From: Candidatus Bathyarchaeota archaeon
GTDB taxonomy: Archaea > Thermoproteota > Bathyarchaeia > Bathyarchaeales > Bathycorpusculaceae
Direction of reading: 5' to 3'
DNA length: 64,000 bases
NCBI GenBank assembly: GCA_963739305.1
Contig: CAVTZU010000020.1
Location: 32,001 to 96,000, forward strand
Of this stretch, positions 6,560-57,096 are shown piece after piece (the first letter of the stretch is position 1; every line of letters starts with the position of its first letter). Made by a program: the position numbers and the translations under genes. The notes beneath the pieces are model-generated. The model did no database searches. It was not told the DNA's origin and saw only the letters and a list, made by a program, of their open reading frames with translations.

Positions 6560-6725
6560 AACAGCGCTATTGCATTTTCTTCCTTTCGGTAGGCGCCTGA
6601 AGAAAGAGTTTCCACACGCGCTGGAAGACCTACCTAATCAAATGCATGAGGATATTGCATTCGAGATACGTATGCTAGCACTTTCAATATTATTATTAAT
6701 TAGAAGGAACGATAGTGCTTAGTCA

Positions 6726-7445
6726 ATGAACTGGGTTCTCGTCGGGCTGGCGTTCACAACATTCTTGTCCACGTTGATAGGCGGGACTTTTGCGATAAGG
6801 CTTAGAAAGGCTCTGCCCTACTTCTTCGCTTTTGCCGCAGGGAGTCTGCTTGCGGTCACCTTCTTCGATATATTGCCAGAAAGCTTGGAAATTTCTGCAT
6901 CGGCAAGCCTCTCTACGAAGTACATAATGATTACAGTCGTGGCATCCTTCCTGTTCTATAGTTTCTTGGAGAAGTTCTTCCTAGTTCATTACCATGAAGA
7001 AAACGGAGGACATGCACACATAATGGGTCCGGTCGGAGCTGGAACCTTGGTTATCCACAGTTTCCTAGACGGAGTAGCCATAGGAGCAGCGTATCAAGTA
7101 AACGCAACGATTGGTCTGCTAGTGGCTTTGGCTGTAATCTTTCATGACTTCACTGACGGGATTAACACGGTCACCCTTATGTTGAAGAACAAGCAGCGTG
7201 TCAGAAACGCGACGATTTTCTTAGTAATGGATGCCATAGCTCCCGTCTCGGGAGTCCTTATCACATCATTGATTAGCATAAACCAGACAGTTCTTGCCTT
7301 GATACTAGCAGTATTTGCTGGAGAGTTCCTCTATATTGGAGCAGTCAACCTGATGCCAGAAACGCACAAATATCCAAATTGGAAAACAGTTGCATCGACG
7401 ATGCTGGCTGTTCTGCTGATTTTGGGACTTACATCAGTAATTTAG
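6726..7445 (+). CDS. ZIP family metal transporter
   Basis: FAAGSLL...DILPES, HSFLDGVAIG, AVIFHDFTDG and multiple TM segments. Confidence 0.9.
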   Translation: MNWVLVGLAFTTFLSTLIGGTFAIRLRKALPYFFAFAAGSLLAVTFFDILPESLEISASASLSTKYIMITVVASFLFYSFLEKFFLVHYHEENGGHAHIMGPVGAGTLVIHSFLDGVAIGAAYQVNATIGLLVALAVIFHDFTDGINTVTLMLKNKQRVRNATIFLVMDAIAPVSGVLITSLISINQTVLALILAVFAGEFLYIGAVNLMPETHKYPNWKTVASTMLAVLLILGLTSVI

Positions 7446-7660
7446 AAAAGGCTGTGAAAATACAGACTGGACTAGTATGTTCCAACGGGCGCTAGAATGT
7501 TTTGTTAGATTCTGGGAATTGACTTGAATTTAGACGCGCGCGCTATTTAGACTCCGCAACAAACATCTCTTCCCCGCCCATTTCGCCGTTATAGATTAAT
7601 ACACCTTCACGACTTCTCTCAAACTCTCGACACCTAATGAACATTGGAGGCTGATCTCAA

Positions 7661-9208
7661 TTGGCTCCGAAACCCGTGAAAATAACAGACACCACCTTCC
7701 GCGACGCTCATCAAAGCCTGATCGCAACAAGAATGCGCACCGACACAATGCTTCCGATCGCCGAGAAAATAGATCAAGTCGGCTTTTTCTCGCTGGAAGC
7801 CTGGGGAGGAGCCACATTCGATGTCGCCATCCGCTATTTAAATGAGGACCCGTGGGAACGCATCCGCCAACTAAAAAGTCACGTTAAGAAAACACCGCTT
7901 CAGATGCTCCTCAGAGGACAGAATGTCGTTGGCTACCGCAACTATCCAGACGATGTTCTCATAAAATTCATTGAAAAAGCAGCTGAAAACGGCATCGACA
8001 TCTTCCGCGTTTTTGACGCCCTGAACGATATAAGAAACATGGAAGTCGCCATCAAAACCATCAAAAAAGTGGGCAAACACGCTCAGGGAACGATAAGCTA
8101 CACCTTAAGCCCGTTCCACACAGTTGAATACTTCGTCACCTTCGCGAAGAAACTTGCAGAACTAGACTGCGATTCCATATGCATCAAAGACATGGCGGGA
8201 ATGCTCGCCCCTCAACCAGCCTACGAACTGGTTTCAGCATTGAAGAAAGAAGTAGGGTTGCCTGTGCAGATGCACAGCCACAGCACGAGCGGAATGGTGA
8301 TGATGACCTATTTCCACGCATGTGAAGCAGGAGCAGATATTCTAGATACCGCTTTCTCACCCCTCGCATGGGGCACATCACAACCGCCAGTAGAATCGGT
8401 TGTCGCTGCTCTGAAAGGAACACCCTACGACACAGGCCTAGACAGCGAACTCCTCAACGAAATCGCGCAGTACTTCCGAGAACTACGAGAAAAATACTAT
8501 GATCCGCTTAAGCTCATTGACCCTAAGGCAGAACGCGTCGACCCCTCCATAATCGTCCACCAAATACCAGGCGGCATGTTCTCAAACCTTCTCGAACAGC
8601 TTCGAGAGCAAAAAGCGCTCGACAGGCTAAACGAAGTTCTCGAGGAAGTCCCCAAAGTACGAAAAGAACTAGGTTACCCGCCGCTCGTTACGCCTACCAG
8701 CCAGCTTGTTGGGATTCAGGCTGTACTCAATGTCATTTCTGGAAAGCGCTACGGCATCGTACCTAAAGAAATTAAAGACTACGTCAAGGGACTATACGGC
8801 CGACCACCTGCACCGATAGACGAAAAGATAAAGAAAAAAATCATCGGCGACGAACAACCCATCACGTGTCGACCAGCCGATCTTCTTGAACCAGCTCTGA
8901 ACAAAATACCAAACGACGTGAAACCCTACATCAAATCCGACGAAGACAAACTGACCTACACACTTTTCCCGCAAACAGCCCTAGAATTCTTCAAGAAAAG
9001 AGAAGAAAAACGTGAGGAAACCAAACCAGGAGTGCCTCCTGAAAAACTTGCTGAACTGGAGGAAGTCGCAGCCCTTTCAGCCGCCGCTATAAGCTACGTG
9101 CAGAGTTTGTCCGGCGTCAAAGCGTTGACCCTGCGAAATAATAAGGGAACATGCTCGTACTGGGTGTTGGCTGCACGTCAAAACCAAACCGACAATGGTG
9201 CACGATGA
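7661..9208 (+). CDS. Pyruvate/oxaloacetate carboxyltransferase (PycB/OadA/transcarboxylase 5S type) without a fused biotinyl domain
   Basis: RDAHQSL.ATRM, WGGATFD, LLRGQN.VGY, IKDMAG, HSHSTSG, HQIPGGM and PPLVTPTSQ. Confidence 0.93.
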   Translation: MAPKPVKITDTTFRDAHQSLIATRMRTDTMLPIAEKIDQVGFFSLEAWGGATFDVAIRYLNEDPWERIRQLKSHVKKTPLQMLLRGQNVVGYRNYPDDVLIKFIEKAAENGIDIFRVFDALNDIRNMEVAIKTIKKVGKHAQGTISYTLSPFHTVEYFVTFAKKLAELDCDSICIKDMAGMLAPQPAYELVSALKKEVGLPVQMHSHSTSGMVMMTYFHACEAGADILDTAFSPLAWGTSQPPVESVVAALKGTPYDTGLDSELLNEIAQYFRELREKYYDPLKLIDPKAERVDPSIIVHQIPGGMFSNLLEQLREQKALDRLNEVLEEVPKVRKELGYPPLVTPTSQLVGIQAVLNVISGKRYGIVPKEIKDYVKGLYGRPPAPIDEKIKKKIIGDEQPITCRPADLLEPALNKIPNDVKPYIKSDEDKLTYTLFPQTALEFFKKREEKREETKPGVPPEKLAELEEVAALSAAAISYVQSLSGVKALTLRNNKGTCSYWVLAARQNQTDNGAR

Positions 9209-9823: not shown

Positions 9824-11578
9824 TCAGAAAATGGAGAGCGGCTTGTACTCACCGAAGATCTCCCGCAGCGTTCCGCATATTTCTCCCAGAGACGCATACT
9901 CCTTCACTGCGCTCAGTACTAGTGGCATCAGGCTCTCGTTTTCGTGCTCAGCCGCATTGCGCAAACGGTTCAGTGCCTCATCCACTTTGGACCGGGTTCT
10001 CTGTCTCTTCGTCATCTCCAACTGCTCGACCAGCCGTTTTTCTATCGCAGGGTCAATTCTCAACGTCTTGATAGGAACTTCGTCCTGACCCACAAAATCG
10101 TTTACTCCTACAACGATTCTTCTCTTCGCTTCAACTTCCTTCTGAAAACGATACGCGCTTTCAGTGATCTCCTTCTGCATGAAACCCTTCTCGATCGCTG
10201 CTACCGCCCCGCCCATTCCGTCAATCTGCTCCACATACCTCTGTGCCCTCTCTTCAATCTCACTGGTCAAGGATTCGATGTAGTACGAACCCGCAAGCGG
10301 ATCAACTGTGTCAACTGTTCCGCTCTCGTAGGCGATTATTTGCTGCGTCCTTAAGGCGACCATTACCGCTTGTTCGCTGGGCAAAGCATAGGCTTCGTCG
10401 AACGAGTTCGTATGCAGCGACTGGGTCCCTCCAAGCACGCCTGATAGAGCTTGCATTGTTACGCGCACGATGTTGTTGAAAGGCTGCTGAGCCGTTAGCG
10501 CCACGCCCGAGGTCTGAGTGTGGAACCGAAGCATCCACGAGTTAGGGTTCTTAGCCTTGAACCTTTCCCGCATGATCTTTGCCCACAGTCGCCGTGCCGC
10601 GCGGAACTTGGCGACTTCCTCAAAGAAATTATTGTGAGCCGCGAAGAAGAAAGACAACCGCCCTGCAAACTTGTCAACGTCGAGACCGCGGTCTATGGCT
10701 GCTTGCACGTATGCGATCGCGTTTGCGAAGGTGAAAGCCACTTCTTGAACTGCCGTTGCGCCTGCTTCCCTTATGTGGTAGCCGCTTATGCTTATCGTGT
10801 TCCACTGAGGCATGTTCTGGCTGCAGTAGACAAATATGTCTGTGATCATACGCATCGAAGGTTTAGGCGGAAAAATGTACATGCCTCTGGCTACATATTC
10901 CTTGAGCACATCGTTCTGAACCGTGCCGCCTAACCTGGCTTGATCTATACCCTGCTTCTGCCCAACCGCTACGTACATGGCCAGCAAAACATTTGCCGGC
11001 GCGTTAATCGTCATTGAGGTTGTCACTTTGTCAAGAGGAATTCCCTCAAACAGAGTCTCCATGTCTCTTAGGCTGCTTGAGCTCACGCCGACTTTTCCAA
11101 CCTCTCCCAGGGCTAATGGATGGTCACAGTCGTAACCGACCTGCGTGGGAAAATCAAAAGCCACGCTTAAACCAGTCTGCCCATGTTCCAGTAGGTACTT
11201 GAACCGTTTGTTCGTGTCCTCTGCCGTTCCAAAACCGGCGTACTGCCGCATCGTCCACAACCGAGCACGATACATCGTGGTGTAAACCCCCCGTGTAAAC
11301 GGATACTCACCAGGAAAACCCGAGTTCTTAAGATAGTCCAGGTCCCTAACGTCCAAAGGAGTGTAGAGCCTGCTAACAGGTATACCCGAGGTCGTCGCGA
11401 ACTCACCTTTCTCAGGAAGCTTCTCGAGACTTTTCGCAGCGATCCCGTTCTCCCATTCGTTTTTCCGCCGCCGCAGTTCATGTAGGCTTTCTTTATCCGA
11501 CAAGGTCAAAGACACCCAGAGACAACACTGGTCAGCAAACATAAAAGAATTGTCAACAACAAACCCCAACATCGGCAC
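9824..11578 (-). CDS. Methylmalonyl-CoA mutase, large (substrate-binding) subunit; true start probably near 11515
   Basis: [52 protein letters not shown] and [11 protein letters not shown]. No fused cobalamin-binding domain. Confidence 0.95.
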
Positions 11579-11607
11579 ATCAAGCTCACGACGTACACTA
11601 AGGCAAA

Positions 11608-11916
11608 GTGAGTGCGAAAACTGTTAGGAAATTGAAGAAGATTGAGAGGTCTGCGGGGTTCGTGAAAGGTGGGGTGATCATGTCCAAGAGTGGCTTTACA
11701 AAGGATGCGGAGCGAGAAGCCAAGAGACACGGCATCAAGACGCTCAAATATAAACAGAAGAGAACAATTGATGAATGTTTCTTTCTAGGCGATTATGAAT
11801 GCCTGCACCAAGAGGGAAGAGGGGAGAAAGAACGGCAGAGAAACAAAGGCGGGTCATGGAGAAGAAAACCTTCTGACGCTGACAAGAAGAGAAAGAAGAA
11901 CAACGATTGGTGGTAA
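11608..11916 (+). pseudogene. Possible C-terminal fragment of an Mrr-like restriction endonuclease domain
   Basis: V.KL.......GGVIMSKSGFTKDAEREAKRHGI resembles the Mrr_cat C-terminus. An in-frame stop lies just upstream, so the catalytic N-terminal part is missing. Confidence 0.4.
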
Positions 11917-12053
11917 TCGTGCGCGCCAGGAGAGCCAGGACTTATTATTCGACAACGCCCGGTTTGACGGGAATACGTAATGGAGGAGTGGAGATTTAGG
12001 TGCACGCTTTGCCTTCCGAGTTCTTCTCAATAATGAACAAGCTACGATGTACA

Positions 12054-13109
12054 TTATTCTTTATCGTCGTGTTTTGCTGGCAGTGATTCAAGTCTTTTCT
12101 TGAAGGATGCTGCAGATTGGTCATCGGCGAGTATGTATAGAAAATCTCCTTTTTGCAGTTCAAAGTTGTCGGTCATATTGTGAATTATCTCGCCATTTCG
12201 GTAGACCAACAGTACTGGATCGCCTCTATCTATGTCTCCATACTTTATTCCTTGAGAAGTGATTTCGAATCCAACGACGTATTTGGATTTGAGCTTTTCA
12301 GATAATACTATGCCGGCCACTTCATTAGAAATTACCGAAGATGCTAGCATTTTTCCTATTAAGTCGTAGATGGGTGCAACCTTGTCTGCTCCTGCAGCCT
12401 TAGCACTTTCTACTAGCTCCTTATCATTTATGATGGAGACAGCATGGATGTTTTTGTTGAGCTTCTTGGCGCTCAAAACGGCAAGCATATTATCTCCGTC
12501 GTCATCAAAGGTGGATATTAGGTAGCGAGCTTTCTCCACCCCAGCCTTCTTAAGAGTCTCATAAATGTGTGTAGTCGGTCCCCCCACAGCCGCTATTCCA
12601 TCCTTTCTAAGCATTTCAAGTTGATCGTTATCCTTTGCTATGACAACGAACTCCAAGCCTAGCGACTTCAGACTATCGACAACGTACTTGCCTAGGAATT
12701 TGTAACCTACAACTATCACGTGATTCTTCATTCTGCTTACCCTCCTTGTTGTTATTTTCTCAGCTCGCAGCTCGCTCTTCAGAGCAACCGTAAATGTCCC
12801 TTGGACAAGGGAAGCTGCTGACCCAACGCTAAGTATGAAAACTACTATTAGAAGAGCCTTTTCAGAAGCTGGCATAGTGAGAATGCCAGGATTGTAGATC
12901 CCTATAGTCGTGATCGTTGAAACAGCTCCGAGAAGAGCGGTCAACGGGTCCAGCCCCTGATAATATATGAAAATCAAAGCTCCGAAAACAAACATCGAGC
13001 CCAATATTGAAAGTTGAATCCAAACAGATTTGACAATATAAAACGGTGTGTATGCCATAAGATCTAGCAAATCTCTTAGTTTTCTCACGGCAACTTCTCT
13101 GCAAGGCAT
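12054..13109 (-). CDS. Two-TM potassium-channel-like protein with RCK (TrkA-N) domain
   Basis: TM-pore helix-TM arrangement (STITTIGI), NHVIVVGY..LG and DDDGDNMLAVLSAK. Confidence 0.85.
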   Translation of the reverse strand: MPCREVAVRKLRDLLDLMAYTPFYIVKSVWIQLSILGSMFVFGALIFIYYQGLDPLTALLGAVSTITTIGIYNPGILTMPASEKALLIVVFILSVGSAASLVQGTFTVALKSELRAEKITTRRVSRMKNHVIVVGYKFLGKYVVDSLKSLGLEFVVIAKDNDQLEMLRKDGIAAVGGPTTHIYETLKKAGVEKARYLISTFDDDGDNMLAVLSAKKLNKNIHAVSIINDKELVESAKAAGADKVAPIYDLIGKMLASSVISNEVAGIVLSEKLKSKYVVGFEITSQGIKYGDIDRGDPVLLVYRNGEIIHNMTDNFELQKGDFLYILADDQSAASFKKRLESLPAKHDDKE

Positions 13110-13224
13110 GTTATTTAGTTCTAGTAGACGGCTCAGAAACGATTAGGTTGCTCCATCCATAAGTGGATTGCGTTTGGCACGTAGTATTGCTAGAAATTCT
13201 CCTTGAAGCGCGCACTCTTTCTGT

Positions 13225-15036
13225 TCAGGAGTGTGGTTCGCTAATTTCTTTGACGCTTCCTGAAAGTTTAACCTCTTCAAGTCTTGACCTGATCTCTATG
13301 TTGTAAATTCGCCCGACGTCTTCTCGTGTGATTATGCCAATCAGCTTCATGCTGCCCCTTTGCTCAATAACTGGCAGACGTCCGATCTGATTACTAGTCA
13401 TCTTGTCAAAAGCCGTGTAAAGACTCTCATCAGGAAACGCCGTGACAAGCTCTTTCGTCATTACGGAGCTTACCATAGTCGTTGCTCTCTGGTCTGGATG
13501 AATCTGAAGAATATCCGTAAGCGTAACCATACCCACAAGTCTGCCGTTATCATCCAAGACTGGCACACCTTTTATTCCGTTCTTTGCCATTATCTCAGCG
13601 ACCTCTGAAAGCAGTGAGTTGGGGGTGGTTGTGATGACCTTTTTGGTCATTGCGTCTTTGACGAAGAGCTTCTGCATTAGGGGGATGGAGTATTCACCCT
13701 GGTGGGCTGGCGACTCGGCCCTTGATTGAACCTGGCTTCTATAGATCGTGTTCCTTCCTGTGATTACGTAGGCAATGGCGGTGGCTATCATTGAGGGAAC
13801 CAACAGAGTTAATCCTCCGGTCATTTCGCTAACCATGAGTATGACGGCAACAGGCACCTTGCCCACGCCTCCGAAAAATGACATCATCCCCACTATCACG
13901 AATGCGGCCAGGCTCGGACCGAAATTTGGCAAAACTCCGTCGAGGAACATCCAGAGGACTGTTCCCAGCAAGCCGCCTATCACCAAAGCTGGTGCGAAGA
14001 CTCCTCCGCTTCCTCCTGAGCCTATTGAAAGAGACGTGGCAACTATTTTGGCTACGATAATAATTGGAATCAAGGTGAGCGGGAGCAAGGCAAAGTTGCC
14101 GTTCATTGCTATCTGCAGCCAACCGTAGCCCATACCGAGCACCTGCGGGAGAAACATTCCAATAACACCCACTAAAAATCCTCCTAGAGCCGGCTTCAAG
14201 AAGCTCGGTATCCCTAGACGCTGAAAAAGGGTCCGTGTGCCGTAGAACCCTCTGACGTACACGATGCCAACTAAACCGCAGATTATGCCCAAGACAGCGT
14301 ATAGTGGCAGATCAAGCGGGTCGCTGAAGGCACGTAGATTCATGTAGCCAAATATGGGCGTCCATCCAGCAAATGATGCGAATATACTGTATCCCACGGT
14401 CGAAGCTATGAAAGCTGGCAGCAATGTCTCCACCTCAAAGTCTCCCATGTAAAGAATCTCAGCGCTCATTAGGGCCCCTCCAAACGGCGCCTTGAAGATG
14501 GAGCCTATCCCTGAACCTATGCCGACTGCAACTGCGATTCTTCTGTCGTGTAAGCTAAGATGAAGTCTCCTGCTCAGGAAGGAACCGAAGCCTGCCCCTA
14601 TCTGCGCTGTCGGACCTTCCCTGCCTGCACTTCCGCCAGACCCGATCGTTAACGCCGAGGCCAGAAGCTTAACGAAAGGTATTCTGGATCGAATCTCACC
14701 CTTTTTATTGTGAAAAGCGTCTATTGCCGCGTCAGTTCCGTGGCCCTCGGCTTCTGGTGCAAAGCCGTAGACGAGTATACCACAGACGAGCCCTCCAAGA
14801 GTAGTTATCAACGGAATCAAGTAGAGACGGGGCGAGACTGATCCTAAGCTTCCGCCTTCTCCGACTGGCGAAGGAGGAAAAAACCCAGTAACGCCGCCGA
14901 GTAGGATCGTGCTTGTGAGGCTAATTGCTTCATAGAAAAGAATACTCCCTATTCCGCTGACCGCACCTATCAAAAGAGCGATCGGAACCCATTTTCTAAG
15001 ATAACCAAGCTCGTGAGAAGCTCTGGGGGACTTCAC
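13225..15036 (-). CDS. CLC chloride channel/antiporter with C-terminal CBS pair
   Basis: GGSAGREGP, FKAPFGGAL, SGGSGGVFAP and two CBS domains. Confidence 0.93.
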   Translation of the reverse strand: MKSPRASHELGYLRKWVPIALLIGAVSGIGSILFYEAISLTSTILLGGVTGFFPPSPVGEGGSLGSVSPRLYLIPLITTLGGLVCGILVYGFAPEAEGHGTDAAIDAFHNKKGEIRSRIPFVKLLASALTIGSGGSAGREGPTAQIGAGFGSFLSRRLHLSLHDRRIAVAVGIGSGIGSIFKAPFGGALMSAEILYMGDFEVETLLPAFIASTVGYSIFASFAGWTPIFGYMNLRAFSDPLDLPLYAVLGIICGLVGIVYVRGFYGTRTLFQRLGIPSFLKPALGGFLVGVIGMFLPQVLGMGYGWLQIAMNGNFALLPLTLIPIIIVAKIVATSLSIGSGGSGGVFAPALVIGGLLGTVLWMFLDGVLPNFGPSLAAFVIVGMMSFFGGVGKVPVAVILMVSEMTGGLTLLVPSMIATAIAYVITGRNTIYRSQVQSRAESPAHQGEYSIPLMQKLFVKDAMTKKVITTTPNSLLSEVAEIMAKNGIKGVPVLDDNGRLVGMVTLTDILQIHPDQRATTMVSSVMTKELVTAFPDESLYTAFDKMTSNQIGRLPVIEQRGSMKLIGIITREDVGRIYNIEIRSRLEEVKLSGSVKEISEPHS

Positions 15037-15171
15037 TTGTTCTTATCCTTCTCGAATATCCACTGCACAGTGAGGTCGGATATAAACGGCACGCACGCGC
15101 GCTACGAAAATATCTAAGTGGTCTAAATACATGGATGAGATCGGTTATCCTTGCGCGCGCGTTTAACGCGT

Positions 15172-15360
15172 TTATTCATATCGAAGCAAGTAGAGAGGCT
15201 TTGCGGCTTCCTTCTTATTCGTTTCCAAATTGAGAATGCTATTGCGTCGGTTCTCGTCACGTGAGTTCAGTCTTGGCACGCGTGCTCTTTTCCCGTTTGT
15301 TCTTTCTTTTGTCGCGTTCGCTTCTTCCGATGGTCCAGTTCTGTTTTCATTCCAAACCAT
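15172..15360 (-). CDS. Small hypothetical protein
   Basis: ATG preceded by GGAGG, with a TTTATA box upstream. No family recognised. Confidence 0.45.
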   Translation of the reverse strand: MVWNENRTGPSEEANATKERTNGKRARVPRLNSRDENRRNSILNLETNKKEAAKPLYLLRYE

Positions 15361-15557
15361 CTGTACTGATCCTCCTGAGAACTCCGCACCCTTGACTGTA
15401 TAGCGTATTCGATATAAATATTTCTATTTGACTATGAAGGCTCTCAGCGCGCGCCTCTCGACCAGTCTTTTGAAAGAACCAATCTTCGCCCGCTCCGCAA
15501 AGTATTCAATAAGACATACAAATGCCTAGAACAAAACCAGTCTTTCATGCGCGCTTA

Positions 15558-16160
15558 TCAACGTTGACCGTGTTTCGGTTTCTTTGTCTTTGGAAAGTCT
15601 TGCTTTAGATATGGACAGGCTTTGTCTTCTAAACGATCATAGTATCCTACTTCCCAGTGAGCGGAACTGATCAAGCCATATTCGGTGCATCCGAGCATCC
15701 AAGATACTAGGTGAGCCATCTCAACTCTTTCAGCAGAATTGAAGTAGCCCTCTCTGATCATCTCAACTGCTATTCTGCTCAGTCTGCTGAGAAAGCGGCA
15801 GAGGGCAGTGAATTTTTCAGGACCAGACTCGGCGATTCTTTTGTCAGGCTGCCAAGCGACATATTTCGCAAGTGGATTTTCTGCAATTGGGTCAACAGCA
15901 AACCTGTCTTTGGACAACACGGTTCCGAGCTTGAAAGCGACCTTGCTCTTGACAACCCGCACGTGTTGGGATTCCAGCAGCATACGAATGCTCAACACGA
16001 CATCATCGTCTATTCTGTCTCTGATTAGGAAGTGCAGATCTCTTACACCCTCAACGTCTTTCACGAAATCGTATAAACCTAGGAGTATGTTTCCAGTCTT
16101 GTCTGCCTTGCACCGCAGAACAGCGACACTCCAATTATCAACCGACATTATATCACTCAC
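15558..16160 (-). CDS. Hypothetical protein
   Basis: 200-aa ORF with protein-like composition. No motif recognised. Confidence 0.6.
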   Translation of the reverse strand: MSDIMSVDNWSVAVLRCKADKTGNILLGLYDFVKDVEGVRDLHFLIRDRIDDDVVLSIRMLLESQHVRVVKSKVAFKLGTVLSKDRFAVDPIAENPLAKYVAWQPDKRIAESGPEKFTALCRFLSRLSRIAVEMIREGYFNSAERVEMAHLVSWMLGCTEYGLISSAHWEVGYYDRLEDKACPYLKQDFPKTKKPKHGQR

Positions 16161-16208
16161 ACGAGTTTATCTTCCGGTTTTTTCACGTGTTACAAAGACG
16201 ACCGGTTC

Positions 16209-16295
16209 TTATGGTCCTTGTTTGGCTTTTCTTCTTTCTTTCTTGCGCGCTCTTTCCCTGCGCTTCTTCTTTTTATTCCTTTTCTTGAATGGCAT
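16209..16295 (-). CDS. 28-aa Lys/Arg-rich peptide MPFKKRNKKKKRRERARKKERRKAKQGP
   Basis: Manual translation. ATG preceded by GAGTGAGG. Below the ORF-track length cutoff. Confidence 0.5.
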   Translation of the reverse strand: MPFKKRNKKKKRRERARKKERRKAKQGP

Positions 16296-16794
16296 TTTTC
16301 CTCACTCTATACAAGGCAGGACTACTAAAAAGGATTACGTATTGCCTATAACAATAGCCAATGACAAATATTAAAGCTCAACAAGACCCCGCTATGACCT
16401 CGTCCAAGGCGCTGAGCGCGCGCGAGTGTAACGGTGAAGATCGACGGATGAGGTTTGACGCGCGCGCTGACAGAGTAACTTTGACATCATTGCGACAGCC
16501 AACATCGTGCACTTCTGTCTTTGGTAGCCTGTTAAGTTCATTCATGGCAATGATGTCGGTAGCGCGCGTGTCAGTATAACTAATTTACTATTACTATCGC
16601 CAATACGACAAACTTATAAGCAATCTTGTGCATAATACGCGTTGGCGCGTTTTTGTTCAGCGCCAAGGGAAGGACTGTGACCCTTTCATACACTTTGCGT
16701 TTCCTCAGAAGAGCTAAAGTAGAGCGATATTGCTACATTCCTCCACCCTTTCCTTCCCTCCCATTGGCGCGAGCGAACACCATCAGCGTGGACA

Positions 16795-17076
16795 TCAAAA
16801 AGGCTGAATCTCTATGATGATTTTCTTCACTGCTAATTCACAGATCTTTCTAATTCCCCTCTTGCCACTTTCATAGCTGACTTTTATCAGGTTTGTTTCG
16901 TGTAGTCTACGAACTTGTTCGCTGACATATGGTTGGCTTAGCTCAAGTCGCTGGGCTATCGTCGAAATGTCCAGATGTTCTTTTGAGAGTAACTGCAATA
17001 CTCGCAGACTCGTCGAGTTTAACGCGTCAGCAACCTTTAGGGCAGCTTCACCCGAAACAACAATCTCCGCAGACAT
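16795..17076 (-). CDS. ArsR-like winged-HTH regulator
   Basis: AL....L.VL.LL.....IS.IA..L..SQP.VS..V..L....LI and G.RG..K.C. Confidence 0.8.
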   Translation of the reverse strand: MSAEIVVSGEAALKVADALNSTSLRVLQLLSKEHLDISTIAQRLELSQPYVSEQVRRLHETNLIKVSYESGKRGIRKICELAVKKIIIEIQPF

Positions 17077-17282
17077 TACGAACAGCTCTGTTTACCGTAT
17101 GAACTTCTTCAGCGTTTATAATGCTTGTGGGGTTTCCGATTAATATAACTATGCAGATATGCTTATTGGAGACATTTAGGACTGTATTCAATATAGCAAA
17201 ATAAGAGTATTTATAAGCAATTGTTTATATTCATTTGAGTCGTGTTATAAGAACAATACGAAAACTGAGGAGATGCAGAAGC

Positions 17283-17345
17283 ATGCCGAGCAAACAAAAA
17301 AAGAAGAAAGCACTTCCAAAAAAGTACACGAAAAACAAGAAGTAA
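17283..17345 (+). CDS. 20-aa Lys-rich peptide MPSKQKKKKALPKKYTKNKK
   Basis: Manual translation. GAGGAG upstream and a TTTATA box near 17224. Confidence 0.35.
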   Translation: MPSKQKKKKALPKKYTKNKK

Positions 17346-17429
17346 CTCAACGAACCCAGACGTAATAACGCGTTATGCATTCGGGTTGCGCGCGCTAATG
17401 GCAAACTTGCAGGAAGGATATGAAGAAAA

Positions 17430-18824
17430 GTGGCGTTAGACCTCGTTCTGAGAGCTATTGTGACCATTTGCATTTTGGTTTTCTCAGCGAAGGTTCTGGG
17501 CGAGGTTTTCGCAAAAACAAAAATCCCCTCAGTGCTGGGTGAACTTTTCGCGGGAATCCTTCTTGGGCCTTACGCCTTCGGTGCAGTCATAGCGATAGGC
17601 GGCTCACCTGTAATCGAGCTAAACGAGATTGTCCGAGCGTTTGGAGAAATAGGCGGTATACTCATATTGTTCGTCGCCGGTTTGGAGATGACTCTCACTG
17701 ACTTTAGACGTGTTGGCGCATCTGGGTTCACCATAGGAACAGCAGGTGTCGTTTTCCCCTTCATTATGGGCTATGTTTTCTCCCTGCTTTTGGGCTTTAG
17801 CATGGGTGCAAGTCTTGTGATTGCCGCGGCTTTGGTGGCCACGAGTATTTCCATAACTTCACTGGTGTTGCAGGAACTCAAGCAGTCGCGAACAGTGGAG
17901 TCTAAGACAATGGTGAGTGCCGCAGTGGTTGACGACGTGTTAGGACTAGCAATTCTAGGCGTCATAGTTTCTTTCATATCAACTTCCGCGCCAATAAACC
18001 CGATAAACGTAGTTATCGTGATATTGGAGTCTCTTGCTTTATGGTTTGCCTTGGTGGTTTCCGCTTCAGTCATTCTGCCACGACTAATTAACTTAGCTTC
18101 TCGGGGGAAATCAGAGGAGACAGTCGAAGCTGCAGCCACGGCCTCGTGCTTCGGAGCTGCTGCCCTAGCCGCCTACATTGGGCTGTCACCGATCGTTGGC
18201 GCTTTTGCTGCGGGGATGGCGGTGGCAAGTTCTAAGGCGATTGAGAGGATTCGCGAATATGCCAAGAAAATAAGCACAATATTCTCCCCTGTTTTTTTTG
18301 CGCTAGCGGGCGCAGCCTTCAATTACCGAAGCTTCATAACTTCCGATCTGTTCTTCTACGTTTTCTTCATAGGGCTCGTTGCTATCGCCATACTGAGCAA
18401 GCTAGTCGGATGCGGTCTTCCAGCTTTCTTCTTCCTCAAAGACAAAAACAAAGCGATCAAAGTCGGCATAGGCATGATTTCCCGAGGCGAAGTGGGACTG
18501 ATAATCGCAGGAATAGCCATCACCTCAGACGTTATAACCCAAGGCACCTACACCGCGATCATAGGCATGATTATGATAACCACCATTTTGACGCCAATAT
18601 GGTTGAAAAGAGCCTACGACAAGTCTTCGGTTGAGCGTGAAATGCATTCGTTACCAACTGACAATCTTACAGAAACTTCTAAGGCCTGGTGCGCACTACA
18701 CACGTATTCAAAGTGCACCAATTTGATTCTGTTTACAGCTCAAAAACCACTTTGTGTAGGCCTACGCCGCGATCATAACAGGCTTAACAAATTCAATCCC
18801 GCCAACGACGTGCCCGCCTTGTAA
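17430..18824 (+). CDS. Cation:proton antiporter (CPA2, NapA/Kef-like)
   Basis: GELFAGILLGP, LF.AGLE, ATSISIT, AAVVDDVLG and GMISRGEVGL. Confidence 0.92.
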   Translation: MALDLVLRAIVTICILVFSAKVLGEVFAKTKIPSVLGELFAGILLGPYAFGAVIAIGGSPVIELNEIVRAFGEIGGILILFVAGLEMTLTDFRRVGASGFTIGTAGVVFPFIMGYVFSLLLGFSMGASLVIAAALVATSISITSLVLQELKQSRTVESKTMVSAAVVDDVLGLAILGVIVSFISTSAPINPINVVIVILESLALWFALVVSASVILPRLINLASRGKSEETVEAAATASCFGAAALAAYIGLSPIVGAFAAGMAVASSKAIERIREYAKKISTIFSPVFFALAGAAFNYRSFITSDLFFYVFFIGLVAIAILSKLVGCGLPAFFFLKDKNKAIKVGIGMISRGEVGLIIAGIAITSDVITQGTYTAIIGMIMITTILTPIWLKRAYDKSSVEREMHSLPTDNLTETSKAWCALHTYSKCTNLILFTAQKPLCVGLRRDHNRLNKFNPANDVPAL

Positions 18825-19249: not shown

Positions 19250-20323
19250 ATGAAAAGAATCGAAGCACTTAGAGAACAAGCCTTCAACAAGAGAAACTTC
19301 GATGCGTACCTCGTAACCAACGAGCACAATCTCCTTTACCTCACAGGCACGCCGGGCGCAGCATGTCTGCTCATACCGAAAAAAGGCCAAAACACCATCT
19401 ATGTCTACGGCGTCAACTACGACCAAACCAAAGCAGAAGCAAAAGACTGCACGGTCGAACTCATCAAACGAGGCGAAAAACTAACCGACAAAATAGCCCC
19501 AGCATTCAAAAACCTAAACATCAAGAAACTCGCTACGGACACCCTCTACTACGAAATCTACCGCCTCTTTGCAAAAGCCCTCAGAGGCAAAGCAAAACTG
19601 AAAATGCAAGCCCGACTCATATCGGAACTCCGCAAAGTAAAAGACGCAGAAGAGCTGGCAAAAATGCGAAAAGCCGGAGAAATAACCGTAGCAGGCATGA
19701 AAGCAGCCTTCGAAACCATAAAACCAGGCGTCACCGAAATCGAAGTCGCAGCCGAAATCGAGTACGCAATGCGCAAGAACAAGGGCTATGGAACAGCCTT
19801 CGAAACCATCGTTGCTTCAGGCACGCGATCGGCATACCCACATGGGGGATGCGCCGACAGACCAATCCACAAAGGTGACCTTGTCGTCGTCGACATAGGC
19901 GCAATCTACGAGTACTACCGCTCAGACATGACAAGAACCTTCGCTGCTGGTGGCTCAACACAAAAACAGAAAAAACTCTACGAAATTGTGAAAAACGCCC
20001 AAGAAAAAGCATACCACGCGATCAAAGCCAGAGCGAAAGGAAAAGACATAGACCAAGTAGCCCGCAAAATAATCGAAGACGCCGGCTACGGCGAAAACTT
20101 CAACCACGGCCTAGGACACGGCGTCGGCCTAGAAATTCATGAACAACCAAACTTGAGTTCGATAAGCAAAGACAAACTTGCGGAAGGAAACGTCGTCACT
20201 GATGAACCTGGCATATACTTCCCAGGATGGGGAGGAATCCGCATAGAAGACACTGTGCTCGTCAAAAAACGCGCTTCAGAAAAGTTCACAGACGGCTTCT
20301 ACAGCCTAGAAACCGCAAAATAA
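19250..20323 (+). CDS. Xaa-Pro aminopeptidase/prolidase (M24B)
   Basis: VVDIG, SDMTRT, HGLGHGVGLEIHE, EPGIY and GIRIED metal-ligand motifs. Confidence 0.93.
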   Translation: MKRIEALREQAFNKRNFDAYLVTNEHNLLYLTGTPGAACLLIPKKGQNTIYVYGVNYDQTKAEAKDCTVELIKRGEKLTDKIAPAFKNLNIKKLATDTLYYEIYRLFAKALRGKAKLKMQARLISELRKVKDAEELAKMRKAGEITVAGMKAAFETIKPGVTEIEVAAEIEYAMRKNKGYGTAFETIVASGTRSAYPHGGCADRPIHKGDLVVVDIGAIYEYYRSDMTRTFAAGGSTQKQKKLYEIVKNAQEKAYHAIKARAKGKDIDQVARKIIEDAGYGENFNHGLGHGVGLEIHEQPNLSSISKDKLAEGNVVTDEPGIYFPGWGGIRIEDTVLVKKRASEKFTDGFYSLETAK

Positions 20324-20337
20324 CGCCAAACCGTTTT

Positions 20338-20964
20338 TCATTTGTTCTGTGAACTCTTTTCCCTGCCTATCACGTTCCTTACGTGCTTGGTCCTGCTGAA
20401 ATCCTCCAGATCTTCATCCAACAACAACTCTTGAATGTACCTCACTTGCCTCTCCGCAGATGGGATAATGATCCTTTCTAAAGCATTGACCTTCCTGTTT
20501 ATCCTCAACAGTTCGTTAGCTATCCTCTCAATCGCGGTCTCAACCTGAGCGATAAACAGAAGTTCACTCATCAAATCCCCAAGCTTCTCCGCGACACTGT
20601 ACAGCTCCATTTCCTCGATAGAATCGATCCGAGGTCTCTCAGTAACCTTAAGCTTAGGCACAACAACGCCCATGACGGAAACAGGTCTAACATCAATCTT
20701 GATTTTTGAAATGGGCAGGGCAGAAGAAGCCACGTGTTCGAGACCGAGACTCGCCGTTGCTTCCTTGAAGGCATCATAGATTTCTGCAAGCCGCGCCTCC
20801 AACATTTCTCGTTTTCCCAGCTGTTTGATGAGGTTGTTAAGCTCCCCTACCAAACGGTCTCTCTTCACCTTCAGGATGTTCTTTCCGTCCTGGATCAGTT
20901 TGAGATTGCCCCTGAGCCTTATGAGGGCGCCCCTGGTCGCGGTGACTCTGCCCGTGAGCGACAT
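20338..20964 (-). CDS. atpD: A/V-type ATP synthase subunit D
   Basis: TR..L..L, LK.KRD.L and RKVNALE.IIIP. Last gene of the operon. Confidence 0.9.
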   Translation of the reverse strand: MSLTGRVTATRGALIRLRGNLKLIQDGKNILKVKRDRLVGELNNLIKQLGKREMLEARLAEIYDAFKEATASLGLEHVASSALPISKIKIDVRPVSVMGVVVPKLKVTERPRIDSIEEMELYSVAEKLGDLMSELLFIAQVETAIERIANELLRINRKVNALERIIIPSAERQVRYIQELLLDEDLEDFSRTKHVRNVIGREKSSQNK

Positions 20965-20974
20965 TCCTTCATCA

Positions 20975-22376: not shown

Positions 22377-22391
22377 TCAACTAGGCCTCCG

Positions 22392-39151: not shown

Positions 39152-39158
39152 GCGCGCG

Positions 39159-50895: not shown

Positions 50896-51040
50896 TCCCC
50901 GTTCCCCAACCTACATACGTGTAATCGCTAGATATGACTTGTGAAACAAACTTCTATTGCACTTCGATTGGTCAGAGGGCACGAGTGAAACGCTAGCACG
51001 CGCTAAGTCGTTAATAGAAGCGGCAATGAAACCCAGGAAG

Positions 51041-55740: not shown

Positions 55741-55901
55741 TCCCCGCTCCCCAACTTACATAGGTGTAATCGCTAGATATGACTTGTGAAGAAATCTTCT
55801 ATGGCACGAGTACTTGCCACAAATAAGAGTGGTTGCGGTAGTGCGCGCGCTAAACCATGTGAAAAGATAACTGCAACGTACTTTTGGTACGCTTGAGTTT
55901 C

Positions 55902-57032
55902 TTAGATGTGTTTGTAGACTTGCTTGTCAGTGTAATTACCGCTTTCCATTTCATTCTCTATTTCTTTTAGCAGAAGGATCCGCTCATAGGTGCGTGGGTG
56001 AGTGGAGAACAGTAGATTTATTCTTCTCCAGCTTCGCTGAAGACTATTGAATATTCTACCTCCTCCTTCAAGCTGTTTTTCTTCCTCGTCCATGGCCAGC
56101 TCAAGCTCTCTTTCTTCAAGAACGCCGTCGCCGTCCAAGTCGTATTCTTCTTTGCGTTCAATTATCCCTTCAAATTCCTTTTTGGCTGCAGCAGGATCGC
56201 CGATGTAGAAAGTTCGAATTCCGAAGTCTGAGTTGGGCTTGGGGCTGAGCGATAAGCCGTAGGTTATCTTGGTTAGAGCACTTTGAAGTTGGCGTGGAGA
56301 TTGTGTGAGGTAAGCGGAGTAGGCGTCTGCGTAGTGCTCTCTTAAGCGACTCAGACTGCGCAAAGACAAGAGTGAAAGCGTGTAGAAGAGTAGGGGGAAG
56401 AGTGCGGCGATCAGAATCAGTATACGGCCTATAATCTGGCCGATGATACTTCCAATTATGTTGGAGTCTTTTGAGGAGGAGGAACCCGGCGAGAATGCTG
56501 CCTTAACGAGCATCATGAAGATTGCATAGATTAGAATGGGTATCGCGGCCAGCGTTGTCATTACGGCGCAATCGTTGTGTTTTAGGTGTCCAAGTTCATG
56601 GCCGATTACGCCTTCAATTTCCTCTTCGCTTAGTTTTTTGAGAAGGCCCTCATTGACGACAAGGGTTGCTCCTTTCTTTGTCCTTCCAAACACGAATGCG
56701 TTGGGCGCGTCATCCGTTACGATTGCCAATCTGGGGATGGGAATACCGCTCCTGTCTGAAAGTTTTTTCACGGTTTTTTCGAGCCAGGGATTTTCTTGGG
56801 GCTGCAGGTATCTGAGTTTTGTTGAACGTTTAACAATCCATGGACCAGTTAGAAACTGGATCAAGAACAAGAATAGAATAAACGCAACGACGTAGAGCGG
56901 ATGAACTAGAAATCCTATGCCCAGCAAGAAAGGAACAATGTAAAGAGGTATTGCGAGGAAAAAACAAAACACTAGGAAAAGAAGCATGGCTGCGATTGTC
57001 ATGGAAAGTTTCAGACGTGAAAGTCCAGCCAT
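55902..57032 (-). CDS. htpX: HtpX-like M48 membrane zinc protease
   Basis: PNAFVFG, GHELGH, SRLREHYAD and STHP...R. Confidence 0.88.
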   Translation of the reverse strand: MAGLSRLKLSMTIAAMLLFLVFCFFLAIPLYIVPFLLGIGFLVHPLYVVAFILFLFLIQFLTGPWIVKRSTKLRYLQPQENPWLEKTVKKLSDRSGIPIPRLAIVTDDAPNAFVFGRTKKGATLVVNEGLLKKLSEEEIEGVIGHELGHLKHNDCAVMTTLAAIPILIYAIFMMLVKAAFSPGSSSSKDSNIIGSIIGQIIGRILILIAALFPLLFYTLSLLSLRSLSRLREHYADAYSAYLTQSPRQLQSALTKITYGLSLSPKPNSDFGIRTFYIGDPAAAKKEFEGIIERKEEYDLDGDGVLEERELELAMDEEEKQLEGGGRIFNSLQRSWRRINLLFSTHPRTYERILLLKEIENEMESGNYTDKQVYKHI

Positions 57033-57096
57033 TATGTCAGCTTCTCACAGCTTTTTGAGCTTGAAGAACTCGTCAAGCGCGCGACCTTGTCCAGGT

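Follow-up and report, generated by a model that had tools for sequence, protein, structure and literature searches.

Here we show that the palindrome GCGCGCGC is enriched in a Bathyarchaeia genome, is largely restricted to the spacers between genes, is linked to gene adjacencies that are not conserved, and coincides with exact junctions seen between species, between strains and within population contigs. Since it stands where optional gene blocks were gained, lost, inverted or exchanged, it has the look of a seam of genome reshuffling, and we consider it probable that GCGCGCGC serves a flexible, cassette-like genome as its junction word. Our committed but tentative guess is that joining proceeds by annealing, with no dedicated site-specific enzyme. 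To the explanation as a whole, junction word plus annealing, we assign a probability of roughly 0.5. The word resembles HIP1 of cyanobacteria in form, not in behaviour, and no published description of GCGCGCGC as such a word was found in the literature.

Form, abundance and location of the word

The window (the whole stretch of 64,000 nucleotides analysed) holds 19 exact copies of GCGCGCGC, against 0.53 expected from 100 dinucleotide-preserving shuffles (sd 0.73, largest 3); the preliminary description had claimed about 19, and they lie where it implied. Genome-wide there are 359 sites (718 on both strands) against about 25 expected, while Markov models of order 1-3 predict 44-53 in the whole genome, both strands counted. 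A Markov comparison split into coding and intergenic sequence had been proposed; in it the word has the highest z-score of all 8-mers, with the excess confined to spacers. Gene models come from our own crude caller (2245 genes, 79% coding). By these, 297 of 327 genomic runs are intergenic (286) or at a gene edge (11), and the complete genome G001 follows the same pattern (374 intergenic and 14 edge of 419 runs). Spacer density is about 35-60 times that in genes, where GCGCGC is neutral and not avoided (observed/expected 0.89 and 1.02). The host is a peat archaeon.

The consensus is (T)A-GCGCGCGC-T(A) with a GCGCGC core, and the position matrix shows no preference more than 2-3 nt away on either side. 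It is a stand-alone word and not a microsatellite. Neither flanking arms nor a hairpin were found at GCGCGCGC, mirrored complementarity being at expectation. Intergenic runs of exactly 8 nt are in GC phase 164 and 222 times versus 20 and 32 times in CG phase (G000 and G001 analyses, respectively).

Within the window, 16 of the 19 octamers are intergenic (about 15 had been estimated) and three are coding (26818, 28391 and 43446), and all 13 further runs of 6-7 nt containing GCGCGC are intergenic. The quoted variants TAGTGCGCGCTA (29124), TAGCACGCGCTA (50994) and TAGTGCGCGCGCTA (55839) are real. The 12-mer of the earlier title, TAGCGCGCGCTA, has 29 copies in the genome and no exact match in the window, where five one-mismatch copies occur against 0.06 expected. 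Four stretches are free of octamers (1-7534, 17396-25651, 43454-55842 and 55851-64000), matching the statement that housekeeping operons and the AT-rich end contain none. The copies are as follows (coordinates; strand, a dot where none is assigned; description).

7535..7543;.; octamer run CGCGCGCGC, intergenic, right of ZIP-family gene; a 51-nt skip (7485->7537) ends here in runs X1 and X4
11921..11926;.; GCGCGC, left edge of cassette 11963-13205
13208..13213;.; GCGCGC, exact end of homology to G001
15096..15102;.; CGCGCGC(TA) short copy
15153..15161;.; octamer run, intergenic, upstream of ClC gene; a 382-nt skip (run X2) begins at its last base, 15160
15447..15454;.; octamer, intergenic
15549..15554;.; GCGCGC, left edge of cassette 15560-16416; CGCGCGCGC at the same place in G004
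16245..16250;.; GCGCGC at internal 139-nt indel versus G004, which has GCGCGCGCG there
16416..16424;.; octamer run, exact stop of homology to G004:C113; inversion joint
16459..16467;.; octamer run, pairs with 16416 across a 34-nt spacer
16562..16568;.; GCGCGCG short copy
17388..17395;.; octamer, 42 nt upstream of CPA2 antiporter gene; G004 homology ends 27 nt before it
25556..25562;.; CGCGCGC(TA), left partner of 96-nt deletion
25652..25659;.; octamer, right edge of block 20308-25686
26592..26597;.; GCGCGC short copy
26818..26826;.; octamer run within called ORF 26738-28588
28391..28399;.; octamer run within called ORF 26738-28588
29124..29135;.; one-mismatch 12-mer TAGTGCGCGCTA
29177..29183;.; CGCGCGC(TA) short copy
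30617..30624;.; octamer between convergent genes, 2 nt past stop codon
32344..32352;.; octamer run, 3 nt beyond end of 93.5%-identical segment common to G001
32642..32649;.; octamer, intergenic
33620..33626;.; CGCGCGC(TA) short copy
34229..34236;.; octamer, 26 nt past stop codon
34985..34993;.; octamer run in 1.3-kb spacer
35192..35199;.; octamer in the 1.3-kb spacer also holding 34985..34993
35595..35600;.; GCGCGC short copy
39151..39159;.; octamer run, intergenic
39365..39372;.; octamer about 35 nt past a ~95-nt module that recurs at 55719-55810
43446..43453;.; octamer within NosD-like beta-helix gene
50994..51005;.; one-mismatch 12-mer TAGCACGCGCTA
55843..55850;.; octamer, intergenic (in TAGTGCGCGCGCTA at 55839)
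57077..57083;.; GCGCGCG short copy

Accessory blocks and their junctions in the window

Copies of the word accompany the following blocks, cassettes and modules.

6554..7585; +; ZIP-family transporter insert between mmdA-like and oadA-like genes, absent there in 5/5 same-genus genomes compared
11558..18822;.; accessory block of 7.2-7.3 kb with 5 octamers and 7 shorter copies, absent there in G002, G004 and G008
11963..13205; -; one-gene cassette common to G001 (86% identity versus about 73-77% for the core)
15560..16416; -; cassette common to G004:C113 (87-91% identity versus about 76% for the core)
16417..16794;.; 378-nt insert versus G004 (58 nt there), motif at its beginning
16425..16458;.; 34-nt spacer between two copies, inverted in one contig of run X1 (depth 11.7)
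20308..25686; -; seven-gene block of 5.4 kb with octamer 25652 at its right edge; about 0.7 kb in its place in G002
25565..25660;.; 96-nt module between two copies, skipped in contigs of 4/4 runs

The earlier claim that accessory genes are bracketed by copies stands only in part; it fails, for example, for the ZIP gene, which has an octamer run on its right (7535-7543) and only a degenerate cACGCGCt on its left. Alternative junctions at the motif, which had been suggested as something to look for, are present in metagenome contigs of four runs (X1, X2, X3 and X4), all from one study that may include the sample source of the genome assembly: these contigs show deletions, one inversion (seen in a single contig) and a motif-bearing empty site at window copies. 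The block at 11558..18822 is skipped in X1, X3 and X4, and in one X4 contig a 26-nt linker with GGCGCGCGCGCC replaces it. Joints without the motif also occur in the window.

That assembly, binning or alignment produced the pattern artificially, at a low-complexity word rich in GC, is scarcely credible. The genome was binned from a metagenome, has 7.8% contamination and shows redundancy at contig ends, and an octamer lies at most 35 nt from 5 of 72 contig ends; however, assemblers work with words far longer than an 8-bp repeat, the pattern is seen again in each of the 10 same-genus assemblies and in the two single-contig genomes G001 and G080, and the sequences past the junctions are visibly unrelated.

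Synteny, segment ends and strain variants

Compared with the complete sister species G001, the word is present at 6 of 745 conserved gene junctions and at 222 of 1464 variable junctions. When the count is limited to junctions whose two genes both have orthologues, it is 6/745 for adjacent and 28/224 for broken ones, and the stratified (CMH) odds ratio is 8.9 (p = 1e-10). Segments shared by G000 and G001 at 84% identity or more have 130 intergenic ends, of which 21 are no more than 12 nt away from an octamer (null 2.6, with 10 as the largest value in 1000 draws), and internal repeats of G001 have 31 of 184 ends at one (null 4.7, largest 13). For ends of exchanged or duplicated segments, coincidence with the word is 6-8 times as frequent as for random intergenic positions. 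The octamer accounts for about 16-17% of exchanged-segment ends, which means that other junction types exist too. A strain pair (C2/C3) presents the empty and filled states directly, as L-TAGCGCGCGC-R versus L-TAGCGCGCGC-[4.2 kb]-TAGCGCGCGC-R, and in a replacement between C13 and C17 the word bounds the exchanged part on both sides. Enrichment, synteny, segment ends and contigs alike therefore support the proposal that the palindrome is a mark of junctions where genes were gained, lost or recombined.

Position relative to genes bears on another reading, in which the word is primarily a structural or binding site, one that regulates or silences acquired genes, insulates, helps to terminate transcription or signals DNA uptake, and comes to junctions as a side effect, by travelling with acquired DNA or through chance microhomology. 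The word is scarcer than expected in the 40 nt before start codons (12 copies, with about 38 expected), mildly enriched 0-20 nt past stops (48 versus 30) and densest between convergent genes, and a recent paper proposes HIP1 as an uptake signal (PMC13756078). Against this, its distance to starts or stops is not fixed and no T-run accompanies it, so the ordinary transcription factor site or terminator named earlier as a refuting outcome is not what was found. It is also nearly absent from conserved convergent or divergent (non-operonic) junctions (4/201, versus 115/592 variable ones), G001 retains only two of the six copies found at conserved junctions, and binding alone does not explain why junctions are exact to the nucleotide or why copies bound deletions and an inversion; we regard this reading as unlikely. 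The peak between convergent genes likewise does not fit the suggested Z-DNA analogy, in so far as this is based on negative supercoiling.

HIP1 (GCGATCGC), with which the word had been compared, is an 8-bp GC-rich palindrome that, according to PMC5861425, shows a 15- to 300-fold excess, occurs within and between ORFs, is conserved between genomes and has inner bases recognised by methyltransferases; PMC13756078 discusses it in connection with recombination and gene transfer. The likeness in form extends to the alternate HIPs (8 bp, GC-rich, hyper-abundant, lineage-restricted with exceptions), and variants one C-to-T step away, GTGCGCGC and GCGTGCGC among them, are likewise in excess in genome 8-mer counts, as might be expected if methyltransferase-linked or otherwise biased repair made and kept the palindrome by point substitutions. 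Unlike HIP1, however, the word is dense in spacers and at expectation (observed/expected about 1) in genes, lies at junctions that vary and is not retained at orthologous positions. The methyltransferase link also fell away, with no C5 methyltransferase in G000 or complete G001, no N4/N6 methyltransferase common to the genus, and none matching the word in the genomes searched. We hold an origin of the HIP1 kind to be very improbable.

Proposed annealing, a possible dedicated enzyme and related systems

In the explanation that we prefer, segments that range from about 35 bp to over 7 kb and mostly carry 0-2 genes would undergo insertion, deletion, inversion and exchange, both inside a species and across species, with break and join positions inside the palindrome. 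The word would be regenerated on either side of an insert (L-m-R <-> L-m-insert-m-R), each insertion thereby adding one copy, and since inserts would survive only between genes, copies would accumulate in spacers at variable junctions. Maximally stable and self-complementary, the word may anneal during replication or repair, through microhomology-mediated template switching or end joining, and copying would pass on its identity, phase and part of its flanks. As more copies would mean more partners, its growth would be autocatalytic and self-propagating, which would explain why lineages hold either few copies or hundreds. In favour of annealing we count the lack of arms or hairpin, of avoidance in genes and of a co-varying candidate enzyme, GC-unit differences at orthologous junctions (for example, GCGCGC versus CGCGCGCGC), the occurrence of a second short repeat, GGTAAAGTTTTATC, likewise at indel ends, and motif-bounded duplicates in either orientation.

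Several known systems come close. In the dRS3 repeats and intergenic mosaic elements (NIMEs) of Neisseria, short inverted-repeat words flank small intergenic modules, which form mosaics and mark rearrangement and insertion sites, much as here. dRS3 is about 20 bp long and is used for prophage attachment by a dedicated recombinase; the word described here differs in measuring 8-12 bp, bounding whole genes and 150-930 bp modules, and having no enzyme found for it. Integron cassettes share one orientation and are separated by attC sites (imperfect hairpins of 57-141 nt recognised by structure). Integrons are reportedly present in Archaea (PMC9668308). The units seen here are similarly mostly one-gene, of promoterless size, separated by recombination sites and stockpiled in islands, with functions such as GNAT, flavodoxin and glycosyltransferase and with tyrosine recombinases nearby, but they lack hairpins, have mixed orientation and chromosome-wide copies, and have no co-varying integrase among the matches listed. 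REPs are hairpins of 20-40 nt, and a cognate Y1 transposase (RAYT) goes with them; REP/BIME elements share with the word hundreds of lineage-specific, spacer-confined palindromic copies that are denser between convergent genes, whereas the word has no hairpin potential and Y1_Tnp was found in 0 of 31 genomes. Low-specificity recombination is described for the archaeal integrase Int-pTN3, which acts on identical segments, gives the same result as homologous recombination and remodels chromosomes, with a reported minimum of 104 bp of identity (PMC8371274); unlike this, the word has 8-12 bp, and no such integrase is tied to it.

A dedicated sequence-specific enzyme (an integrase, nuclease or transposase-like protein) recognising only the 8-12 bp palindrome would produce the same junction behaviour, either as integron-like cassettes with a minimal attachment site or as insertions duplicating the word as target site, and we consider it possible, if doubtful. 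Tyrosine or serine recombinases and attC sites require conserved arms or a hairpin, which the word lacks, and inserts contain neither enzyme genes nor common terminal sequences. Among the matches listed, tyrosine recombinases do not follow octamer numbers (11 versus 14 octamers in G012, 8 versus 0 in G020, 10 versus 6 in G026, and none in G006 and G010, which have 29 and 64 octamers), integrases are mostly kilobases away from copies, and no PF00589 match listed lies on C20, consistent with the earlier statement that the window has no recombinase. Cas1 is mostly fragmentary in the genus, and neither it nor methyltransferase, RAYT or tyrosine recombinase (again among matches listed) tracks the word in the genomes searched.

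Counting against annealing and for an enzyme is the sharp length and phase specificity of runs, carried through to junction use (exact GCGCGC at segment ends 29/196, exact CGCGCG 0/67). The L-m-R versus L-m-insert-m-R arrangement, which amounts to site duplication, also speaks for an enzyme. The A...T flank is the same in four families (f1, f35, f26 and f36), where 15-37% of octamers occur as AGCGCGCGCT and a control word has 0-3 copies, and distribution across the class is patchy; together these are typical of a horizontally moving protein with defined specificity, whose gene would give such a distribution. Finally, in a G001 island at 845-875 kb, which contains two tyrosine recombinases, a copy stands between almost all genes.

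Abundance and form of an iterated palindrome

The octamer GCGCGCGC, built on the core GCGCGC, is found 19 times in the window against 0.53 expected from 100 dinucleotide-preserving shuffles (sd 0.73, largest 3), which bears out the many-fold excess claimed in the preliminary description; the flanked variants it placed at 29124, 50994 and 55839 are likewise all present. The 12-mer form TAGCGCGCGCTA has no exact copy here and five with one mismatch (0.06 expected). By our own gene model 16 of the 19 octamers are intergenic, as are 13/13 of the shorter GCGCGC-containing runs (6-7 nt).

The genome under study (G000; 2,317,032 bp in 36 contigs, 47.4% G+C, 97.1% completeness, 7.8% contamination; the window is C20:32001-96000), for which our dicodon log-odds caller gives 2245 genes and 79% coding sequence, carries 359 octamer sites in 327 separate runs, against about 25 expected. 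Markov models of order 1-3 predict 44-53 occurrences on both strands where 718 are observed, and in a z-score ranking of all 8-mers of this genome the octamer comes first, with two of its flanked forms, CGCGCGCT and GCGCGCTA, next, so that the enrichment over a Markov background proposed earlier as a check is indeed found. The 327 runs comprise 286 that are intergenic, 11 on a gene edge and 30 that are coding, with a density of 0.55-0.97 octamers per kb in spacers and 0.016 per kb in genes. Redundant contig ends, 95-99% identical (e.g. C2/C3/C6, C13/C17, C16/C22, C29/C35, C7/C31 and C23/C35), are strain variants that slightly inflate these counts and explain part of the 7.8% contamination; they contribute 22 duplicated motif-flank pairs.

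Among 293 isolated octamers, the preceding base is A in 149 and the following base T in 157, and the next base outward is T in 140 and A in 147; base frequencies are flat past two or three positions. Complementarity of mirrored positions equals the frequency-based expectation past ±2 nt, both here (174 sites) and in G001, a complete single-contig genome of the same genus (231 sites), and because it does not rise above expectation the word forms no hairpin, longer palindrome or set of paired binding arms. The lack of covariation or flanking conservation rules out an extended palindrome or attC-like hairpin and sets the word apart from integron attC sites. An all-against-all comparison of ±150 nt flanks returned the 22 assembly-duplicate pairs and scattered modules with no single family, which excludes a larger repeat or MITE around the word.

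Run length is sharply defined. In spacers of the genome under study, C/G runs number 123 at length 6 (GC phase), 106 at length 7, 164 in GC phase versus 20 in CG phase at length 8, 85 at length 9 and 44 at length 10, while other dinucleotide runs there fall monotonically with length; in G001, length-8 runs number 222 in GC phase versus 32 in CG phase. The non-monotonic lengths and the phase preference, seen likewise in G001, rule out a dinucleotide microsatellite produced by slippage.

Within spacers the octamer has no fixed place relative to stops or promoters; a fixed place had been named as an outcome that would count against a junction signal. It is depleted in the 40 nt upstream of start codons (12 versus about 38 expected), in mild excess in the 20 nt after stop codons (48 versus 30 expected) and spread elsewhere, and the spacers that hold it are long (median 399 nt versus 150 nt). 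The broad distances to starts and stops, the flat position matrix and the absence of a T-run argue against a promoter, a terminator or a transcription factor site.

Coding sequence was assessed by synonymous-codon shuffling within confident genes of both genomes. GCGCGC has an observed-to-expected ratio (O/E) of 0.89 in G000 and 1.02 in G001, and the octamer is found 16 times in genes versus 11.9 expected and 26 times versus 12.9, respectively; the word is therefore neither favoured nor avoided in genes. The analogy drawn previously with a BssHII-type restriction site at GCGCGC does not stand, as there is no avoidance in genes and no shared methyltransferase. Other palindromes are avoided in genes: GGGCCC in G000 (O/E 0.38) and not in G001 (0.97), and CCCGGG (0.50-0.54), CGGCCG (0.58) and GCCGGC (0.57-0.71) in both genomes. 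They resemble restriction-system targets, of which one would be strain-specific.

Segment ends at the word

The genomes G000 and G001 share 1375 reciprocal best hits at a median protein identity of 74.6%, and G001 carries 419 octamer runs, 374 of them intergenic and 14 on a gene edge. As the preliminary description had supposed, the word coincides with non-conserved gene adjacency.

Octamers at gene junctions of the genome under study, classed by gene order in G001
Adjacency kept in G001: octamer in 6/745
Both genes with orthologues but not adjacent in G001: octamer in 28/224
All non-conserved junctions: octamer in 222/1464

Octamer density is 0.125 per kb at conserved and 0.70 per kb at variable junctions, and stratification by orientation and spacer length gives a common odds ratio of 8.9 (chi-square 41.9, p = 1e-10). 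At convergent and divergent junctions, which are not operon-internal, 4/201 conserved versus 115/592 variable junctions carry the octamer. It is nearly absent from conserved junctions, and only two of the six conserved-junction copies are also present in G001, which would not be expected of a general terminator or insulator. The six copies point to no gene, which speaks against the site of an autoregulated binding protein, and the intergenic placement of copies at variable junctions, not kept at orthologous places, would argue against a DNA uptake sequence of the DUS/USS type.

There are 81 segments of 150 bp or longer that the two genomes have in common at no less than 84% identity, far above a core level of about 75%; we read them as probable recent exchange. 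Of 130 distinct segment ends in G000 spacers, 21 fall within 12 nt of an octamer, versus 2.6 at random spacer positions (largest 10 in 1000 draws); 14 ends in G000 and 19 in G001 lie inside the word. Homology reaches the last base of the word with unrelated sequence beyond, and the word is often present in both genomes (C1:71383, C26:516, C15:111914). Three putatively exchanged segments have it on both flanks (C18:128547-130355, 1813 bp; C11:77275-77594, 319 bp; C32:29688-29901, 213 bp). Segment ends are found at 33/317 octamer runs and 29/196 exact GCGCGC sites, with controls of 0/67 for exact CGCGCG, 0/276 for six other all-GC palindromic hexamers and 1% for random spacer positions.

Cassettes and inserts in the window, compared with same-genus genomes
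6554-7585: insert with the ZIP gene, absent at that place in 5/5 same-genus genomes
11963-13205: one-gene cassette, 86% identical to G001; GCGCGC at 11921 and 13208, octamer at the G001 edge
15560-16416: cassette, 87-91% identical to the relative G004 (core 76%); starts directly after GCGCGC, where G004 has CGCGCGCGC, and ends exactly at the octamer at 16416
11558-18822 and 20308-25686: blocks absent at those places in the relatives G002, G004 and G008

Repeats internal to G001 end in the same manner, with 31 of 184 spacer ends within 12 nt of an octamer against a null of 4.7 (largest 13), and in several duplicates of 450-930 bp the word flanks both copies, which lie in opposite orientations. 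An insertion sequence that uses the word as its target duplication is excluded: no multi-copy IS family is present in G001, where internal repeat pairs of 400 bp or more number only 26. Gaps of 400-1600 bp between consecutive copies number 130 versus 70 expected; the 312 gaps of up to 6.4 kb enclose no gene in 95 cases, one in 110, two in 45 and three or more in 62.

An island at 845-875 kb of G001 carries about 25 copies, one between almost all neighbouring genes, in mixed gene orientation; it holds two tyrosine recombinases (PF00589), a TrmB-type regulator, two GT4 glycosyltransferases, a flavodoxin, two GNAT acetyltransferases, a Cas1 C-terminal fragment and a TBP paralogue, among others. 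Extra TBP paralogues, a TFB fragment and an SSB-like OB-fold gene are also seen at C8:38173-38733 and 39464-40024 in the genome under study and at 872185-873146 in G001, within multi-copy mosaic modules bounded by the motif. Elsewhere in G001, a 6-kb tandem duplication (2096997-2102992 and 2102981-2108976, 99.95% identity) covers oadA-like and methylmalonyl-CoA mutase genes, of which the window has one copy each.

Strain variants within the bin differ at the word. Contig C3 has a single TAGCGCGCGC between its left and right flanks, and contig C2 has the same flanks with 4.2 kb between two copies of TAGCGCGCGC. The insert (C2:5976-9837) encodes a cohesin/dockerin protein and a dockerin-tagged family-5 solute-binding protein, with no recombinase; its genes are cellulosome-type modules in an archaeon. 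Contigs C13 and C17 differ by a replacement, 2.0 kb versus 2.9 kb, and each variant has the word at, or close to, both of its ends; C13 terminates on the word.

Alternative junctions at the motif, whose detection in reads had been suggested, were found in contigs of four metagenome runs of one study, compared with window positions 6001-26000 after exclusion of parts with poor coverage or none. In 4/4 runs 96 nt are deleted exactly between CGCGCGCTA (25556) and GCGCGCGCTA (25652); one run has a 382-nt skip from the last base of the copy at 15153-15160, and two runs have a 51-nt skip whose end lies in the copy at 7535. The copies at 16416 and 16459 enclose a 34-nt spacer that is reversed in one contig. 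The whole 7.2-kb block is skipped in contigs of three runs, and in one of these contigs a 26-nt linker holds GGCGCGCGCGCC. Other joints lack the word (9760->9781/9792, 10805->11190, 11321->11538, 19773->20240).

The central proposal of the preliminary description, that the palindrome marks junctions of gene gain, loss and recombination, is thus supported by synteny, by segment ends and by strain and population variants. We place the probability of this reading of GCGCGCGC as a junction word at about 0.8. Since filled sites have the word on both sides and empty sites have one copy, each insertion adds a copy; insertions survive only between genes, so copies pile up in spacers where junctions are variable. 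These two steps explain the whole distribution without selection on the word in genes. A single 8-bp word predicts differences in gene content between species, between strains and between cells of one population.

Distribution over the class and possible routes of joining

In sediments and peat, Bathyarchaeia rank among the most abundant archaea that have not been cultured. The metagenome runs that contain the window sequence are labelled peat, and its ribonucleotide reductase has its nearest named relatives, at about 80% amino-acid identity, in metagenome bins that carry the label Bathyarchaeia or Bathyarchaeota. All 10 of 10 other genomes of the genus carry the octamer, with 29-464 sites scaling with assembly size, and eight other genera of the family, in a first sample, have 0-14. 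In a survey of 301 genomes of the class the word is patchy and not genus-specific, with fewer than 30 octamers in most genomes. Rich genomes occur in other genera of the same family (G219, 262; G192, 106; G094, 95) and in other families (G080, 601; G089, 373; G100, 300; G105, 325; G244, 346; G252, 227), with the octamer and its CG-phase control CGCGCGCG at roughly 2:1, as in the genus; equal counts of both phases in some GC-rich-looking genomes are taken as compositional. The single-contig genome G080 (1.98 Mb) has 35% G+C in a 20-kb sample, at which its 601 copies represent, by our estimate, a far larger excess than in the genome under study. The A...T-flanked form AGCGCGCGCT makes up 82/359 octamers in the latter and 40/262, 94/601, 131/373, 119/325 and 83/346 in five genomes of four families, and its reversed control word has 0-4 copies. 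The same word and flank thus recur in distant families, with an excess of up to several-hundred-fold. Some Bathyarchaeia have more CGCGCGCG than GCGCGCGC (G167, 152 vs 89; G084, 77 vs 46; many genomes of family f34), a surplus that could reflect composition or a lineage iterating the other phase.

If the word is a junction word, its copies may be joined when this self-complementary 8-mer, maximally stable as it is, anneals in the course of replication or repair, through template switching or microhomology-mediated joining; copy number would then grow autocatalytically and word identity would be inherited. We give this route slightly less than an even chance. It is consistent with a site that has no arms, with the tolerance of copies in genes, with orthologous junctions that differ by GC steps, with the small spacer inverted between two copies and with motif-bounded duplicates in either orientation, as well as with the use of a second short repeat, GGTAAAGTTTTATC, at the ends of indels between strain-variant contigs. 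This repeat is itself dispersed and intergenic, with about 37-40 copies, often within GGGTTTGGG...CCCAAACCC inverted flanks (C8:6332-6421, C8:8997-9086, C30:1940-2055, C2:12115-12795, C3:5620-5746, and the ends of C25 and C30), and it does not stand at promoter distance, the next start codon being over 500 nt away for 20 of 39 copies.

A putative sequence-specific enzyme, its gene moving horizontally, is a tentative second route within the same reading, favoured by the sharp preference for length and phase, the phase-specific use of junctions, the flank common to four families and the patchy distribution over the class. Its fullest form would be a Bathyarchaeia cassette system, not seen before, with a minimal palindromic attachment site of 8-12 bp, (T)AGCGCGCGCT(A), at which a putative integrase or nuclease would insert, excise and flip cassettes in either orientation, anywhere on the chromosome, having spread horizontally between families; such spread would account for genera that have hundreds of copies beside sister genera with almost none. 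We consider this system as a whole rather less likely than not.

Several enzyme families were searched for, and none was supported as a candidate. C5 methyltransferases (PF00145) have no match in G000 or G001, and N4/N6 methyltransferases (PF01555) have no match common to the genus. A RAYT (PF01797) was found in 0/31 genomes, with the search control positive in 6/14, and the word lacks both defining features of the REP/RAYT class, a Y1 (HUH) transposase and a 20-40 nt imperfect hairpin. Tyrosine recombinases are abundant in motif-poor genomes too and, among the matches listed, lie mostly far from copies, with counts that do not follow motif counts. Cas1/casposase does not track the motif either, as Cas1 is mostly fragmentary in this genus and intact in motif-poor genera: the pieces are chiefly C-terminal stretches of 70-150 residues, some with stops (C18:9381-9596 and 15069-15263 in G000; 862528-862974, 2026633-2026785 and 227778-228074 in G001), and the intact proteins of sister genera have 348-388 aa. 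Octamers at C18:9794 and 15421 are close to two of the G000 pieces.

Relation to known systems and further features of the window

The word had been described as HIP-like, which holds for its form: like cyanobacterial HIP1 it is a highly iterated 8-bp palindrome far above Markov background (359 sites versus about 25 expected). The likeness does not extend to abundance in ORFs (coding runs only 30/327), to conservation (2/6 copies kept in G001) or to a cognate methyltransferase. In behaviour the word is closer to the dRS3/NIME repeats of Neisseria or to integron cassettes, which have dedicated recombinases and longer or structured sites that are absent here. HIP1 itself, in the cited passages, is conserved within and between ORFs and accompanied by cognate methyltransferases (PMC5861425, PMC13756078). 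Among archaea, the closest precedent for recombination at plain identical sequence is Int-pTN3, which requires 104 bp (PMC8371274).

A literature search of main texts returned no description of the word or of any iterated intergenic palindrome in Bathyarchaeia, and what is new here is an iterated palindrome, or dispersed repeat, with an unusually direct link to cassette junctions. If an enzyme reads the word, it would represent a new minimal-site recombination system and a possible archaeal genetic tool; if none is needed, it would be a clean natural case of self-amplifying microhomology organising horizontal gene transfer, with relevance to the purpose of HIP-type palindromes, a long-open question. 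In both cases the word can serve in practice to mark the boundaries of accessory genes, as well as assembly breaks in these metagenome bins.

Rfam and tRNA scans of the window gave no match, including Rfam for a stretch at 25687-25949, which has no called gene, is 76-79% conserved in 5/5 same-genus genomes compared and lies upstream of the gene at 26059-26541. A small gene or an RNA may be present there. A non-coding module of about 95 nt is present at 39240-39330 and 55719-55810, its copies about 90% identical; both copies are upstream of minus-strand genes, with an octamer at a distance of about 30 nt.
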